A stretch of 64,000 bases of DNA from IMG/VR virus record IMGVR_UViG_3300037419_000871; one strand, written 5' to 3'. The notes below the pieces were generated by a model, which was given only the letters and a program-made list of their open reading frames with translations, did no database searches and was not told where the DNA came from. Below, in pieces: positions 39,858 through 45,979 of this stretch; the stretch's first letter is position 1, and each line of letters starts with the position of its first letter. Origin of the DNA: a virus. The position numbers and the translations under genes are program-made.

Positions 39858-42116
39858 TCACACCGCCGCTCTCGCCGGCCTCACAAACTTGATTTTCCTC
39901 CCCACATGCCGCGGATCGTCCTCGTCCACCTCGGCCAAGATGCCGTTGGCGATCCACGAATCCAGCGCCGCCTTGATGCGCCGTTTTTCCGGCGTCATGG
40001 CGCGGCTGGTTTCTATGTCGGCGCCCATGGCTTGCGCCAGGACGTAGCCGGCCCAATCGGATGACTGATCGCTCGCGCGGCAGTTCTGATTAGCCAGCCG
40101 CACCAGCACCTCGGCCCGCACGTCGTCTGGAATGGCCGCCGCAACGGCATCCTTGGACGGCCAGTTCCACTCCGTCACGACGCCGGCATGGTCTTGCGGC
40201 TTCAGGATGCCGGTGCCATTGCCTAAAGGCACGCTCTCCATCTTGCGCCAATGCTGACTGTTGTCGAGCTTGGTCAGATTGGCCTTGCCGTAGTGGATCC
40301 AGAAGTAGCTAAACCTGTCGTTCGGGTCTAAGCCCGCCTTGGTGGCCTGATCCTCTGTCATGCGGTTTAGCACCCGCACGGAACGCGCCGCACCAATCAG
40401 CGACACGGCTCCGCGGGCATCCTCCACGGTGGCCTCGCGGTCGGACATTTTGCGCAGGTGGTGTACCACGTCGACGGCGCAGTTGGTCATGTCCGCGATT
40501 TGCGCCCACAGCTTGGCCACCTTGTCGATCGCGCCGTTGTCGTTCTCATTGACGTGGTGCGTCGACACGAACGGGTCAATGATCATGACGTCGATGCCGT
40601 GGCGGCGGATTTGCTCCACGACAGCCTCGACAACCGGCTTGTTGATCTTCAGGCCGGTTTTCTTATCCTCCTCCATGATGACAAGTTCCTGCTCGCGTCC
40701 GGTGTCGAGGAACAGGCGGCCGGCGATGTCATCAGGCGCAAGATTGTAATGGAGGCATGCGGCCATGATCCGCCGGTCCATTTCGTCGCGCGGATCCTCG
40801 GCGTTGAACAGCCAGCAAGACAGGCGCGTGGGTGGCTTTGTGCCTGCCAGCGGCTTGCCTGACACCATAGAAAGCGCCTCCACGATACTGTTGGACGTTT
40901 TCCCCAAGCCACCCGGCGAGACGGTTACAGACACGAATTTGCGGATGTAGTGTGTACCGAACGCGAACTCTCTGCGGGGTAGTTTCTTGGGATCTTTGTA
41001 GGTGAACGGCGTGGCTGTGAAGGCTGGGCGCTCGGGCGCTGGAGTGTTGTCTTGCGTAAGCGATACGAACTCGGGGTCGGCGCCGTGGTTGCCCGGCTCT
41101 GGCGCGTGGTCAGCGCCGGGTGCTGCGGGCAGCGCAACGTCGTGCGCGCCGGTTTTGGCGGTTGCACTGGCCTTCCGTAGCCCGTTCTCAATCATCTTGG
41201 TAATGTCGATCAGCCGCGTGTTGTCGCCACGATCCGGCGCCGGGATATCGCGCGGTTGCTGGATGCCCGCAGCCAACCCGTTCTCGATTGTCTTGCAGCA
41301 CCGCGCCCAATCACGGCCCCAGCCGCGCGCAACGTCCTGCAGCAAGGCGCGCGCTTCGGATTCCGACAAAGCGCCGGCACCGACGAATGTGCCGAGGCAG
41401 AACGAAGCGTCGTTGAGAGAGTTGTTCCTCGACCCCATAGGCGCGCCGGCAAGTTCCGCCAACTCACGGTCAACCGCCGCGTTGACGTATGCGCTGTTGG
41501 TGTGGGAGTTGCCCGCGCGGATGGTTGTTTGCTCAGGCGCGCGTCGCACGACCAAGTCTAGCAACCACGCAGGCGCATCAGCGATGTCCGGTATCTTGTT
41601 GGCGTCGGGTTGCTCTACCCATTTGTAAGCGCGGCCATCAGACATGACGCTGCCGGCCGCGCAGACGTACCCGCCTTCCGAACGCAAATCCACGCCCGCG
41701 CCGAGGTTGCCGCGGTTGCGTGTGCCGTCGACGTATTTAAACAGGTAGTGCATTCCACCGTTGGGCGATTTAACGCGCGCGGTCTCTGGCAGCGGCCCGT
41801 GCTCCGCTTCCATCTCATGCAGCCACTCGAACCCATTTGCGGCTCCGGGTTTGTTGTCCACGTCGAGGACGAAGAACCCAGCATCCTTGCCGGTGGGAAT
41901 GCCTACGGCCGCATCCGGCCAGTCGTTGAACCAACGCTTGACGATGTGCGCAAACCGCGTTGCCCCGCGGAAGCCGTTTGATGTAAGAGGCGTTTTCTCG
42001 CCAAGCGTTGTCACCTCACCTGTATACGGGTCGGTGGTTTCCTCCGCGCGGCTGCGGCACGGGAAGACCTTCAGGCCCTGCGAGACGTAGAAGTTGGCGA
42101 GTTCAAGCGGCGTCAC
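39858..42116 (-). CDS. bifunctional primase-polymerase fused to AAA_25 (RepA-like) helicase
   Basis: VFPC..KTP, VLDVD, HYLF, DLRSEGGYV; SPGGLGKT Walker A, IIDPF, VVHHLRK. Confidence 0.92.
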   Translation of the reverse strand: MTPLELANFYVSQGLKVFPCRSRAEETTDPYTGEVTTLGEKTPLTSNGFRGATRFAHIVKRWFNDWPDAAVGIPTGKDAGFFVLDVDNKPGAANGFEWLHEMEAEHGPLPETARVKSPNGGMHYLFKYVDGTRNRGNLGAGVDLRSEGGYVCAAGSVMSDGRAYKWVEQPDANKIPDIADAPAWLLDLVVRRAPEQTTIRAGNSHTNSAYVNAAVDRELAELAGAPMGSRNNSLNDASFCLGTFVGAGALSESEARALLQDVARGWGRDWARCCKTIENGLAAGIQQPRDIPAPDRGDNTRLIDITKMIENGLRKASATAKTGAHDVALPAAPGADHAPEPGNHGADPEFVSLTQDNTPAPERPAFTATPFTYKDPKKLPRREFAFGTHYIRKFVSVTVSPGGLGKTSNSIVEALSMVSGKPLAGTKPPTRLSCWLFNAEDPRDEMDRRIMAACLHYNLAPDDIAGRLFLDTGREQELVIMEEDKKTGLKINKPVVEAVVEQIRRHGIDVMIIDPFVSTHHVNENDNGAIDKVAKLWAQIADMTNCAVDVVHHLRKMSDREATVEDARGAVSLIGAARSVRVLNRMTEDQATKAGLDPNDRFSYFWIHYGKANLTKLDNSQHWRKMESVPLGNGTGILKPQDHAGVVTEWNWPSKDAVAAAIPDDVRAEVLVRLANQNCRASDQSSDWAGYVLAQAMGADIETSRAMTPEKRRIKAALDSWIANGILAEVDEDDPRHVGRKIKFVRPARAAV

Positions 42117-44031
42117 GGATCACCTGTGTCTGGTTGTTGTTATTGTCGTTGGCGGCGGTGGGCGGCATCAGCCGCTGTATGCGCCGTCCTAGCCACGCGA
42201 AAAGCGGCACTGCCCAACTATTCCCCAGCGCCTTGTAGCGCGGACCGTCAGCCGCCAAGCGCGCAACGTCCGCGCGCGTCAGGTTCTTCGGATTACCGCG
42301 GGCCATGTACTTGACCCAATCGGCGTCGAGTTTCGCTTCGCTGACCTTGTTATACGGAATCGCGGTGTAGTCCGGCGACCACCAACGGCCGGCGTCGTCG
42401 AGCCACGCGCCGGGGTAGTCGGGACTGCATAAGAATTGAAACCCCTGCAGACGCTCGCATTCGCGCGGCGTGAGACGTCGGACGGCGGAGGTTAGCACAT
42501 GCGGCTTATCCCCACCGCCTGAGCTTGCGCGCAGCGCGGTGGCAACGTCGCCACCTAGTTCTGCCGTCGCGCCGCCTTCACGGCCACGGAGGGCGACGGT
42601 GCAGACCGCCATAGGATCGTGACGTCGCAAGGTTGGTGATAATTCTGCCGACGCGTCCGCTCCGAAGTCTACAGACTGGAACGCAATCGCAGGCATCACA
42701 CCCGCATTAGCATGGCTCGTGGTGTGTCCGCCGGCGCGTAGAGTTGGCGCTAGGTCGGTGGAAGCGTCGGCGCCGTAGTCCTTGGCGCTAAACGCGATGA
42801 CGTGAGGCGGGCGAGAGGGGCGGTTCTCCCCTTCGGCCCGCAACGTCCCAGCCACGTCGTCTTGCTTCCACCAACCTTGTCCAGTCTCGTGCATGACCGT
42901 TACAATCGGCGTGCCGCGACCCGTGCCGTCTTCCGATCCGTCCGCACCTTCGGCTTTCAACGCGTGACTGATAGGACCAGTGACGCCTACCGCAACCATA
43001 GTCGTCGACTCGTAGTCCTGCGATGAACCCTCGCGCGTTGTGTCGCAACGCGCGATCTCGGGTGCGTAAGCGACAGCAGAACGTGAGTGCCCGTCAGTCG
43101 TTAGAGTTGGTACGATTTCTTTTTCAAGTGTTACCATCTCTTCGTGTGCAGACTTTCGACCGTTGGGCCGCCCCTTATTCATATGAAGAAAGCAAGCCAC
43201 AACCGGACCATGCCCGCGCGTATCTCCGGTACGCTCTACTCCCCGGCCACTTGCCGTAAGGCTTGGTGCAACTGCGGCGGCAATTCCTTGCCCCGTTTCT
43301 CTGCTCGGCGGAGAATCCCGGCGCACGCTTTCTGGCTCAAAAAGAACCGCTGCGGGATCGGCCCCGTTTCCAAAATCTGCGACAACGATGACACGCTTGC
43401 GTCGTTGGGCCAGTCCGAAGTATTGGGCGTCGAGGACACGCCACGCCGCACGTCCTTTGGGTCCAGCGACCATACCCGCGTTAGGCCAGCGACGTCCCTT
43501 TGGTGGTGGTAGGGCATCTGCTGCGCCCACAAGTCCGGCGAGGAAACATCCGAAGGCGTTGTCTTTAGTTGAGAGAACTCCGGGTACATTTTCCCAGACT
43601 GCATTCCGAAGTCCATTGCCATTTGTCGTGCCATTGCCGGCGAGTTCATGAGCGAGCCTTACGAATTCGAGAGAAAGATTACCGCGCGCGTCGTCTAATG
43701 ACTGACGCAGACCGGCAACACTAAACGCCTGGCATGGCGTGCCGCCACACAGGATATCAACACGGCTAAGCGTAGCTGTATCGATCTTGGTGAAGTCGCC
43801 AAGGTTAGGTACACTTGGATAGTGATGCGCGAGCACCGCAGACGGAAACTTCTCAATCTCCGAAAATGCCACGGCCTGCCACTGCGGCCACGCTACGGAC
43901 GCCGCTTCAATGCCAGAGCATACGCTCAGGAAGCGCAGCGCCCCTGCGTTAGCCGGTGCGCAATGACCGCCACAATAATCTCCGCGGTCGTATCGTGCAG
44001 CGTCTGGACAATTATCATTCGCGTACTCCAT
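42103..44031 (-). CDS. C5 cytosine DNA methyltransferase with long repeated TRD region
   Basis: SVCSGIEAA (I), GGTPCQAFS (IV), WENVPG (VI), QRRKRV (VIII), LTPRECERLQGF (IX), YKALGNS (X). Confidence 0.93.
   Translation of the reverse strand: MEYANDNCPDAARYDRGDYCGGHCAPANAGALRFLSVCSGIEAASVAWPQWQAVAFSEIEKFPSAVLAHHYPSVPNLGDFTKIDTATLSRVDILCGGTPCQAFSVAGLRQSLDDARGNLSLEFVRLAHELAGNGTTNGNGLRNAVWENVPGVLSTKDNAFGCFLAGLVGAADALPPPKGRRWPNAGMVAGPKGRAAWRVLDAQYFGLAQRRKRVIVVADFGNGADPAAVLFEPESVRRDSPPSRETGQGIAAAVAPSLTASGRGVERTGDTRGHGPVVACFLHMNKGRPNGRKSAHEEMVTLEKEIVPTLTTDGHSRSAVAYAPEIARCDTTREGSSQDYESTTMVAVGVTGPISHALKAEGADGSEDGTGRGTPIVTVMHETGQGWWKQDDVAGTLRAEGENRPSRPPHVIAFSAKDYGADASTDLAPTLRAGGHTTSHANAGVMPAIAFQSVDFGADASAELSPTLRRHDPMAVCTVALRGREGGATAELGGDVATALRASSGGGDKPHVLTSAVRRLTPRECERLQGFQFLCSPDYPGAWLDDAGRWWSPDYTAIPYNKVSEAKLDADWVKYMARGNPKNLTRADVARLAADGPRYKALGNSWAVPLFAWLGRRIQRLMPPTAANDNNNNQTQVIRDAA
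43236..43649 (-). CDS. alternative-frame ORF nested in C5 MTase
   Basis: 137 aa, same strand, shifted frame; SDWPNDASVSSLSQILETGPIPQRFFLSQKACAGILRRAEKRGKELP. Confidence 0.6.
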   Translation of the reverse strand: MNSPAMARQMAMDFGMQSGKMYPEFSQLKTTPSDVSSPDLWAQQMPYHHQRDVAGLTRVWSLDPKDVRRGVSSTPNTSDWPNDASVSSLSQILETGPIPQRFFLSQKACAGILRRAEKRGKELPPQLHQALRQVAGE

Positions 44032-44399
44032 CACCACGGAATCTCCCTGCTCACAATCTCCCGCATGCTGTCGGCGTATGCGATAAACCCCAGCCGCCAG
44101 AACGTCGCCCACTCCTCTTCCGTCAACGTGGCAAGGTCTGTCTTTTGTATGGAGTCAAGGTATTCTCCGCCTGCGTTGCCGCCGTCTTCCAAGGCGCGTG
44201 TTTCGAACTCGTCCAGTTGCTTGCGTGGCATGTGATAGACCTTTGGTAATTTGGAGCGGACGCCGTTGTGTGTGTCGTCCAGGCATTCCCAGCACCCCCA
44301 TTTGATGGGTGCGCGGTCGTGCGGGGCATAGCCGATGTTGTCGTGGCGGCGTTTGCAGATGAAGCAAACGCCAACAAGTTCGTGGGCTAGGCTGGTCAT
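44031..44399 (-). CDS. CxxC-containing conserved phage protein (DUF6511-like)
   Basis: CFICKR...CWEC; GGEYLDSIQKTDLATL. Confidence 0.7.
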   Translation of the reverse strand: MTSLAHELVGVCFICKRRHDNIGYAPHDRAPIKWGCWECLDDTHNGVRSKLPKVYHMPRKQLDEFETRALEDGGNAGGEYLDSIQKTDLATLTEEEWATFWRLGFIAYADSMREIVSREIPW

Positions 44400-45979
44400 G
44401 CTGCGAACAAGTCGGCTTGTGGTGTGTTGTCGTTTGCCGGTTGCGCGGCTTGCGCCGTAGCTACTGGCAACGATGGAGCGGTAAGTCGCCGCTTAATGTC
44501 CTCCACATATTCCGCCTCGCGCTCGATAAGTACCGCACGGAAGCCTTCGCGCTCTGCCGCCTCTCCGGTCGTCCCCGATCCCGCAAATGGATCCAAGACC
44601 GTCCCGCCGGGCGGTGTGATAAGGCGGGCCAACCAAGACATAAGGGCCACGGGCTTGACGGTTGGGTGTTTCGATCCGGCGCGGTCGGCTTTGCTGGCTT
44701 TTGCTGAATAGAAGAATCGGGCGGCAGAGCCACCTGCGTCCCCGTAACGCATCGCTGCGCCGCCGATACCGAACATGCTGCTTTCGGGTCCGCTGTGTGT
44801 TCCCTCCGCAGCGGTGCGCGCCTTACCAGCGCCGTGCGTATTCGGAAACGCCCCGACCACTTCATCCGAGCCGTCGTGAATTACGTTGGCCGGCCAGCGT
44901 CCGGCACCACTTGGCTTCCAAGTTCCTTCCGTCACGACGCCGCCGTTGATATTCGCCCCATAAATTTTGTTCGGTGTGCTCTTGCCGCTGCGGCCTTCCA
45001 TCTCCGCAACATCCGCCGCACTCGTCCCAACCCTACACCCATCAATATTCAGCGCGCCGGTGCGCCAGCGCAGCACATTCGCGGCGACCGTGCCTTCGGA
45101 CAGCGGCTTGCGCGCGAGCACGATGGGTTCAAACGCCGGTTTGAGCGCGGTGCCCCAGCCCTCCCATTGGCGGGCGGCGTCGAGCACCGGAGTCGGCGCA
45201 AGCTGGCGGCCCGTAAAGCTTCCGACTGTGTTGCCGGACCCGCCGTGCAACCCGCCCGTCGTCTCGATTGTGCCGCGCTGCTTTGCGGCTTCGCCCCACT
45301 CACCTTTGCGCTCGTTCAGCCGCCACACATCGGAGTCCATTTCGTCGCCGAGCGAAAGGAAGGCTTTCAACTGCAGCCACTGTTCCCACTTCGGACACTG
45401 GCAACGATGCAATAGGCGCGACGTCCACCAGCCGCCCATGTCTGACGTGCCCATGTGAGTATCGATATCGCTCCGCGATTTACCGGCGCGATCCGCAGCG
45501 TCCGCTACAAACGTGGTTACGCGCAGAATATCGGGACGGTCGTCGCGCGCCTTATCAATCCCCTTGCTCACATCATGCGACTTCGGAAAACCCGTCCCAT
45601 ATACCCACATCAACGAGTCGCGAATTTCAAATCCCGCATCCTCGATCGCGCACGCCATGCGGTGATACCCGCGCGACGCACCGAACGCGGCGACATGCCC
45701 GCCCGGTTTCAACACGCGCAGGACGTCGACCCAAAACTCTTCGGAGAACGCGGTCTCGCCGGTATCCCAGGTCTTGCCCATGAACCCGGCCGACGCGCGC
45801 ATATATGCGTCGTTGCCCTTTGCTGGCGCAGCGTTCGCACCGCCGAACCGCTTGACGATGGAAACCAGTGCATAGGGAGGATCTGTGACGCAGCTATCCA
45901 GCGAATTATCCGGCAACTGCCGCAGCACGTCGCGGTTGTCGCCGTGGTACAACTCACAATTTCCAATAACTGTTTTCAA
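44396..45979 (-). CDS. N6-adenine/N4-cytosine DNA methyltransferase (beta class) with internal insertion
   Basis: VTDPPY, HPTVKP, VLDPFAGSGTT. Confidence 0.92.
   Translation of the reverse strand: MKTVIGNCELYHGDNRDVLRQLPDNSLDSCVTDPPYALVSIVKRFGGANAAPAKGNDAYMRASAGFMGKTWDTGETAFSEEFWVDVLRVLKPGGHVAAFGASRGYHRMACAIEDAGFEIRDSLMWVYGTGFPKSHDVSKGIDKARDDRPDILRVTTFVADAADRAGKSRSDIDTHMGTSDMGGWWTSRLLHRCQCPKWEQWLQLKAFLSLGDEMDSDVWRLNERKGEWGEAAKQRGTIETTGGLHGGSGNTVGSFTGRQLAPTPVLDAARQWEGWGTALKPAFEPIVLARKPLSEGTVAANVLRWRTGALNIDGCRVGTSAADVAEMEGRSGKSTPNKIYGANINGGVVTEGTWKPSGAGRWPANVIHDGSDEVVGAFPNTHGAGKARTAAEGTHSGPESSMFGIGGAAMRYGDAGGSAARFFYSAKASKADRAGSKHPTVKPVALMSWLARLITPPGGTVLDPFAGSGTTGEAAEREGFRAVLIEREAEYVEDIKRRLTAPSLPVATAQAAQPANDNTPQADLFAA

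Follow-up and report, generated by a model that had tools for sequence, protein, structure and literature searches.

The 64,000-nucleotide (nt) stretch of IMG/VR virus record IMGVR_UViG_3300037419_000871 analysed here (the window) carries on its minus strand a gene for a cytosine C5 DNA methyltransferase resembling Dmt of phage P1 and, inside that gene, a second open reading frame (ORF) of 137 codons. The methyltransferase gene (42103..44031) encodes 642 amino acids in one continuous frame. Its enclosing ORF extends over 42103..44112 on the minus strand. Translation likely begins at ATG 44031, where the start codon and the stop codon of the upstream ORF share bases as TGATG (44029-44033). The product matched Pfam PF00145 with an E-value of 1.2e-26 (94.4 bits, where the gathering cut-off is 22) and PHROG 116 with an E-value of 5e-69. 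The closest solved relative was M.HhaI, and the alignment to it spans motifs I-V, VIII and IX. All of the diagnostic blocks lie on the minus strand in the main frame, namely motif I (43903-43926), motif IV with PCQ (43720-43746), motif VI with ENV (43579-43596), motif VIII of the form QxRxR (43390-43410), motif IX (RRLTPRECERLQGF; 42439-42480) and motif X (GNSWAVP; 42205-42225).

The nested ORF occupies 43236..43649, also on the minus strand, and ends with a TGA stop codon (43236-43238). The distance from 44031 to 43649 is 382 nt, or 3x127+1, which places the ORF in the +1 frame of the methyltransferase gene. Its ATG (43647..43649, minus) is formed from the main-frame CAT codon (His) and the G of the next codon, within GCT-CAT-GAA, and a Shine-Dalgarno-like AAGG (43657..43660, minus) is found 7 nt upstream. 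An in-frame TAA (43659-43661), sharing the first two bases of AAGG, shuts the +1 frame just 5' of the ATG. The extent of the ORF, its tail, the one-base offset, the ATG and the AAGG had all been reported in a preliminary description made from the sequence alone, and each was found exactly as given. Two points of that description are amended: the ORF is on the minus strand of the window, and, although it was said to cross motifs IV to VIII, it begins downstream of motif IV and spans motifs VI and VIII and approximately 50 further codons.

When the 137 nested residues were used as a tblastn query against 50,697 phage records, 159 records were matched, with E-values down to 1e-47, which verifies the recurrence in phage methyltransferase loci given in the preliminary description. 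Among the annotated records listed, a methyltransferase gene or an unnamed coding sequence (CDS) lay beneath the match in all except one. Eight phage records were inspected (Sinorhizobium phage NV1.1.1, P1, Vibrio PS10B.1, Enterobacter CobraSix, Akkermansia Chantilly, Streptococcus Javan105, Terrisporobacter TPDSL_ph1 and Mycobacterium NihilNomen). The match was in the +1 frame of an annotated methyltransferase CDS in every one (8/8), and the nested ORF was annotated in none (0/8). A phmmer search of 1.84 billion cluster representatives returned 3595 matches at E<=1e-3 and 1105 at E<=1e-10. The free-standing proteins among them come from metagenome contigs of 0.5-4 kilobases and are nameless or called 'hypothetical protein'.

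Relatives were also gathered by homology to the methyltransferase itself and not to the nested peptide, giving 80 viral loci that, with three phage loci that we opened, make a set of 83; the viral loci, like the genome loci described below, are the best 80 of roughly 580. The +1 frame was open in 83/83 over the matched 104-167 codons (median ~120), in the same relative frame and with the same end point, and counting the window gene it was free of stop codons in 84/84 type-A genes. Over the same DNA, identity ranged from 46% to 81% for the nested protein and from 54% to 89% for the main frame. From stop to stop, the nested frame measures 130-240 codons, and the density of +1 stops elsewhere in these genes is 0.034 per codon. 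When each gene had its synonymous codons shuffled, the median share of trials that left the frame open was 7%. Long alternative-frame runs (median 102 codons) also occur elsewhere in these GC-rich genes; hence, openness at one locus proves little, and the signal is its constant position over all loci. The frame is open for 135 codons in Javan105, a genome of 39% GC where +1 stops elsewhere number 0.081 per codon, and for 134 codons in Terrisporobacter TPDSL_ph1, which has 42% GC. In a further 84 loci, 80 of them from genome contigs, the gene was continuous with the +1 frame open, as in the window, in 72. The remaining 12 comprise four in which the nested frame runs into motifs IX-X, three with some other frameshift and five truncated where the contig ends. 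The nested arrangement is common to relatives from phages and prophages of several bacterial phyla.

Selection on the second frame was assessed with a codon alignment of 70 genes sharing less than 85% identity. Identity at 4-fold degenerate sites of the main frame was 0.30-0.40 gene-wide and 0.44-0.56 over the N-terminal part of the nested ORF. It was 0.65 at main-frame residues 196-210, 0.84-0.91 at residues 211-255 and 0.61 at residues 256-270, and it dropped to 0.32 directly past the nested stop. Under the nested tail (residues 88-135 of the product), pairwise identities at main-frame codon positions 1, 2 and 3 were 0.61, 0.79 and 0.77, compared with 0.74, 0.79 and 0.41 in motif blocks outside the overlap. 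The wobble position in the tail is thus the third position of the nested frame, and this shifted register fits a protein-coding constraint, not an RNA or DNA element. Several main-frame codons are nearly frozen, including GTT (67/68), GAT (62/62) and CAA (69/70), against backgrounds of 0.23-0.39; binomial p-values on such codon choices ignore relatedness and are illustrative only. At the level of the nested protein, substitutions in the tail are conservative (I/V, F/Y and R/K). The second frame is therefore under purifying selection as a protein, most strongly in the tail, where the DNA is under tighter constraint from the nested frame than from the methyltransferase frame.

The start signals are also retained. 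In the column of the nested ATG the main-frame residue varies between Asp, His and Asn (amino-acid identity 0.33), and the codon used is GAT in 24/27, CAT in 22/22 and AAT in 21/21, so that the ATG is present in 67/70 genes, compared with a background of 0.37-0.40 for T-ending codons. In the Shine-Dalgarno column, relatives mostly have GTG followed by GAG, AGG or GAA, giving GGAG, GAGG or GGAA approximately 7 nt before the ATG, and the signal is preserved while the second main-frame residue changes. Many relatives have an in-frame stop no more than 8 codons 5' of the ATG. The kept ATG and Shine-Dalgarno sequence and the nearby upstream stops together support independent initiation. We conclude that the nested ORF is almost certainly a real, selected protein-coding gene.

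The dual coding asserted in the preliminary description is accordingly upheld by synonymous-site constraint, shifted codon periodicity, the kept start signals and a wide phylogenetic spread. The low complexity of the main frame, which had been offered as a sign of it, is a weak one, as the strongest constraint lies under motif VIII and the next 50 codons and not under the Gly/Ala/Pro-rich stretch. A further suggestion, that both C5 methyltransferases of this genome are dual-coding, is not borne out by the family profile of the nested protein, which in an hmmsearch of the six-frame translation of the window gave a single match (E=3.6e-65), at this locus.

The product has two unlike parts. Approximately 85 N-terminal residues are rich in Ser, Thr and Pro and are predicted to be largely disordered, and a small, helical tail rich in Arg and Lys, and hence basic, follows. 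An AlphaFold2 (AF2) model built with a 65-sequence alignment had a mean predicted local distance difference test (pLDDT) score of 60, with residues 1-88 mostly below 50. The tail (residues 88-135, from SLSQILE to ALRQVA; 43245..43388, minus) is the most constrained part of the overlap, and in the model it forms three helices, at residues 89-95, 106-119 and 125-135, with pLDDT of 70-91. Eighteen columns of the alignment are invariant and the window protein has the invariant residue in all of them; 16/18 are in the tail. The conserved tail pattern L-S-x-x-L-E ... F/Y-L-S-x-x-A-C-x-G-I-L-R-R-A-x-x-R-x-K-x-L-P ... A-L, followed by an early stop, is also present in the window. Upstream, residues 56-66 (LTRVWSLDPKD; 43452..43484, minus) make up a short hairpin, which by prediction extends the methyltransferase sheet by one strand at residues 185-190. 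AF2 places strands at nested residues 50-52 and 55-57; G55 and G70 never vary and V59 hardly does. In Akkermansia phage Chantilly (L087:1881-2465) the nested ORF has 194 codons and an extended N-terminus, indicating that the N-terminal length is highly variable and the tail fixed. An ESM Atlas feature search with the nested protein returned solely unnamed viral 'hypothetical protein' clusters, and no description of the nested gene was found in the full-text literature searched, a body that excludes most subscription journals.

Association of the nested protein with the methyltransferase was predicted in silico from an alignment of the methyltransferase and one of nested residues 45-137. Three runs scored 0.79, 0.80 and 0.76, and the best of three controls scored 0.00. 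The three runs share at least 55% of contacts, and pLDDT of the partner was at least 71. Two interfaces are predicted. In one, nested residues 57-61 pair as a strand with main-frame residues 185-190, which form the edge strand lying between motifs VI and VIII; these are the contacts of lowest error. In the other, nested residues 73-109 and 129-134 lie against main-frame residues 198-208, 227-243 and 513-528, the last being the motif IX region, and include contacts between nested residues 93-103 and main-frame residues 518-524, which are encoded more than 900 nt away. The controlled prediction supports binding of the nested protein to the methyltransferase; it does not show it.

On this basis we propose that 43236-43649 would be translated in two frames. 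Frame 0 encodes the catalytic core of a phage C5 methyltransferase from motif VI to motif VIII, together with the first part of its variable region, and frame +1 would be expressed as a separate gene from its own Shine-Dalgarno sequence and ATG inside the methyltransferase mRNA. The +1 product, made up of the disordered N-terminal part (~85 residues), the hairpin (~50-62) and the basic three-helix module (88-135), would bind the methyltransferase translated from the same mRNA. Its hairpin would lengthen the edge strand located between motifs VI and VIII, and the helical tail would sit against the helix of motif IX, where the large and small domains meet. In this role the nested protein would be an accessory subunit without catalytic function, stabilising or tuning the enzyme, and we lean, with modest confidence, towards a methyltransferase-binding subunit as its role.

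Several observations weigh against a bound subunit. The calibration counts for the complex prediction, in which the mark was reached by 58/80 solved complexes and 2/110 mismatched pairs, hold only roughly here, as both input alignments were made for this analysis. The contacts of lowest error (nested 57-61 with main-frame 186-190) centre on residues encoded by the same nucleotides (a number difference of 127), and if the alignments were paired by genome, covariation arising from the shared DNA could mimic the hairpin contacts, although the predicted contacts between tail and motif IX cannot stem from it. Neither Pfam nor PHROG has a family for the nested protein at E<=1, PF00145 included, and a profile of 65 nested proteins found no match among Protein Data Bank sequences at E<=10; its function therefore rests on one in silico prediction. 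Constraint on the 85 N-terminal residues is weak and that part is predicted to be disordered, and translation is deduced from sequence features.

The 'accessory subunit or regulator' of the preliminary description has gained support in silico for its first half. A real nested protein could instead be a regulator, with the basic tail binding DNA or RNA and controlling expression of the methyltransferase or of early genes in the manner of a restriction-modification controller protein, or an adaptor that connects the enzyme to another partner. The small, helical, Arg/Lys-rich tail would suit such roles, a long disordered N-terminus, often with a short linear motif, is typical of adaptors, and no methyltransferase motif or fold was detected in the nested protein. 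However, neither a helix-turn-helix nor any other DNA-binding family was found in Pfam at E<=1, and in the complex prediction, whose controls were at 0.00, the tail docks on the enzyme. We consider a regulator or adaptor that is not a structural subunit rather unlikely, and an adaptor role is compatible with enzyme binding, hence not truly exclusive of a subunit. Synonymous-site constraint alone cannot tell an overlapping gene from an RNA structure, an internal promoter or a protein-binding site, with the open frame as a by-product. A nucleic-acid element is nevertheless extremely unlikely, given that the constraint is periodic in the +1 register with the variation at nested third positions, that every relative, genomes of 39-42% GC included, has 130-240 open codons in this frame, that the ATG is held while the main-frame residue varies, that the stop is at a constant place where the constraint ends, and that tail substitutions are conservative for the protein.

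Database proteins that pass from main-frame motifs I-VI into the nested frame (P0023, P0066, P0068, P0109 and P0142) might suggest that ribosomes reach the +1 frame by frameshifting, producing a truncated enzyme with an alternative C-terminus. Their junctions are scattered (before ENV, after ENV and after AFGCFL), which fits random indels or sequencing errors and does not fit a conserved slippery site, for which no systematic search was made; the nested frame also has its own kept ATG and Shine-Dalgarno sequence and is open right up to them. Frameshifting is therefore highly improbable. Other chimeras raise the possibility of an enzyme in two halves of the M.AquI type, in which a C-terminal subunit would begin with the nested frame and the fused main frame would be secondary. 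Around one quarter of the best 150 phmmer matches are proteins of 300-680 amino acids whose sequence passes in frame from the nested peptide to the target-recognition region and motifs IX-X, and such loci are found in isolate genomes, of Rhizorhapis (L138) and Pseudomonas abyssi (L144). In two loci with the fused layout, a 243-codon frame-0 ORF containing motifs I-VIII overlaps a 478-codon +1 ORF by 431 nt. Yet the main frame is continuous in the window and in 155/168 loci examined, and 5/6 frameshifted loci examined change frame within a G6-G10 homopolymer or immediately behind it, at a point past the normal nested stop. As the nested peptide is called as a gene only where the main gene is broken or cut, the database is enriched for such forms. 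The fused forms look like slipped, phase-varied, decayed or mis-sequenced copies, and we regard a two-half enzyme as very unlikely.

The fused database proteins were also considered as Rosetta-stone evidence for association of the two chains, and dropped because of the frame changes at G6-G10 tracts and the database bias towards broken or cut genes. The tracts in question encode Gly runs of the variable region (L085:3399-3407, L126:2513-2522, L153:3034-3042, L138:2914-2919 and L144:2913-2918). Among intact genes on genome contigs, 5/72 have G runs of at least 7 in the variable region (three G7, one G8 and one G10), and the longest in the window gene is G4. Homopolymer frameshifts could reflect phase variation of these phage methyltransferases or sequencing error.

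Another candidate that was considered is that the tail is the canonical segment following motif VIII in monomeric C5 methyltransferases, and so a missing piece of the enzyme. By eye, the tail resembles part of Escherichia coli Dcm (L-x-Q-L-L-D ... K-Y-I-L-T ... L-Y-R-Y-A-K-K). When the profile of the nested family was aligned to Dcm with hhalign the probability was 0.3%, and BLASTP of the tail against Dcm residues 270-372 gave no match at E<=100. The AF2 model of a natural chimera joining the tail to motifs IX-X (P0126; mean pLDDT 70.6) was compared with 48,161 chains and none exceeded a Z score of 3.6; the sole methyltransferase found was EhMeth, with a Z score of 2.8 and a root-mean-square deviation of 5.0 over 96 residues. 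The missing-piece idea is thus unsupported by profile, BLASTP and fold searches.

Nested residues 9-14 (QMAMDF; 43608..43625, minus) are of the type Q-[LMIV]-x-[LMI]-x-[LF] and resemble a sliding-clamp-binding peptide. In bacteria, such peptides are penta- or hexapeptides, for example QADMF and QLDLF (PMC3664792). A motif of the form Q-[LFMIV]-x-[LMIF]-F or Q-[LMIV]-x-[LMI]-x-[LF] was found near the start of the nested protein in 41/68 viral loci and 45/79 further loci, mostly genome contigs, compared with 1.4% of 32-residue windows drawn from the three frames of these genes and 1.7% on shuffling. Examples from relatives are QLTMF, QLTIF, QLDLF, QLGLF, QLDMF and QLTMDF, and the codons that make the motif are non-preferred ones in the main frame (GCA in 31/40, ATT in 27/47 and GTT in 15/15). 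The window QMAMDF lies in the region of pLDDT below 50. As the motif is missing from the nested proteins of P1, the Vibrio phage and CobraSix, it cannot be the core function of the family. From the motif pattern, the nested protein might act as a replisome tether, with an N-terminal clamp-binding peptide and C-terminal helices that hold the methyltransferase, and phage DNA would then be methylated as it is replicated; we regard this as doubtful. DNMT1 is recruited to PCNA, and a tether, if real, would be the bacterial-virus counterpart of that recruitment, encoded in the second frame of the enzyme's own gene.

The nearest known arrangement is that of M.EcoHK31I from E. coli HK31 (YGGCCR), where the beta chain is encoded inside the alpha gene in another frame and association of both is needed for activity (PMC2836561); the beta chain carries only motif IX (PMC3404938). 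As in the window, a small polypeptide lies wholly within a large methyltransferase gene on the same strand and in a different frame, and the association of chains known there is predicted in silico here. Set against its published description, however, the two differ in content. The M.EcoHK31I alpha chain lacks motif IX, which beta supplies, whereas in the window every motif, IX and X among them, is on the main frame, and no methyltransferase motif can be recognised in the nested protein. The preliminary description was therefore right that this cannot be a beta chain of the EcoHK31I type. M.EcoHK31I is also part of a restriction-modification system, while the window gene belongs to a widely distributed phage methyltransferase family. 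The primary report of M.EcoHK31I is that of Lee, Kam and Shaw (1995). By analogy, the nested gene can be seen as a variant of the gene-within-gene, two-polypeptide C5 methyltransferase known from M.EcoHK31I, like it in layout and unlike it in content.

M.AquI (CYCGRG) is a C5 methyltransferase of two subunits, with motifs I-VIII on one chain and IX-X on the other (PMC3404938). It too consists of two polypeptides, divided past motif VIII in the variable region, which here encodes the nested tail and is its predicted docking site. That division is a true split, whereas the window gene is continuous (642 codons, all motifs) and its extra chain is additional. The same nested +1 ORF is found open in dmt of P1 (NC_005856, P1_gp069; L002 2459-2950), which has relatives in P7, SJ46 and RCS47. 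The P1 nested protein shares 44% identity with that of the window and has the same tail and stop position, but it is longer, lacks the N-terminal motif of the Q-L-x-[LM]-F type and is unannotated in the P1 record, and P1 Dmt differs in being fused to an N6-adenine methyltransferase domain. Overprinted genes are known from small viruses, including phiX174 and the tymovirus p69 over the replicase (PMC8227390). They share with the present case a new frame laid over an older, widespread enzyme frame and a largely disordered new protein. The window case differs in occurring in large double-stranded DNA phages and prophages, where pressure on genome size is weak, and in having an age great enough for several bacterial phyla to share it.

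In Mycobacterium phage NihilNomen (L170:1065-2182) the methyltransferase is annotated as two genes, 123 and 124, of 231 and 116 amino acids. Gene 123 includes motif VI (ENV) and motif VIII (QRRRR), and within it is a 159-codon nested +1 ORF that has a QLDLF motif near its start. This locus may be a natural three-polypeptide version.

Should the nested protein be made and bind the enzyme, a large and widespread set of 'orphan' C5 methyltransferases of phages and prophages, including that of P1 dmt, would be two-protein enzymes annotated as one gene. Codon optimisation of the methyltransferase gene for heterologous expression would then silently destroy a second gene, and the interpretation of methylome and anti-restriction studies, as well as phage gene calling in general, would be affected. 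Among long overlaps on one strand in double-stranded DNA phages, this one also ranks with the oldest and the best supported.

The methyltransferase gene is the last of three in 42103-45979 on the minus strand, following an N6/N4 methyltransferase gene (44396-45979) and a 122-codon ORF (44031-44399). Downstream is a primase-helicase gene (39858-42116), the GTG start of which is 14 nt inside the 3' end of the C5 methyltransferase gene (42103-42116). The genes for the N6/N4 methyltransferase, the small ORF, the C5 methyltransferase and the primase look translationally coupled, and 42103-45979 is an early or replication operon of a phage. For the segment 42103-44400, 93-100% of sampled words were present in seven public soil or rhizosphere metagenome runs, six of which may be the source sample, and no RNA run was listed among the public runs. 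The phage is one from soil or rhizosphere. The nearest relative of the nested protein among genomes is in a Bradyrhizobiaceae metagenome-assembled genome (81%; L088). At its C-terminus (42103-42150), the window methyltransferase ends in ...ANDNNNNQTQVIRDAA, and a metagenomic relative that is 59% identical (P0007) ends in ...GNDNEAINEAA. Thus, the ANDN...AA-type tail first noticed elsewhere on this genome is common to at least one relative.

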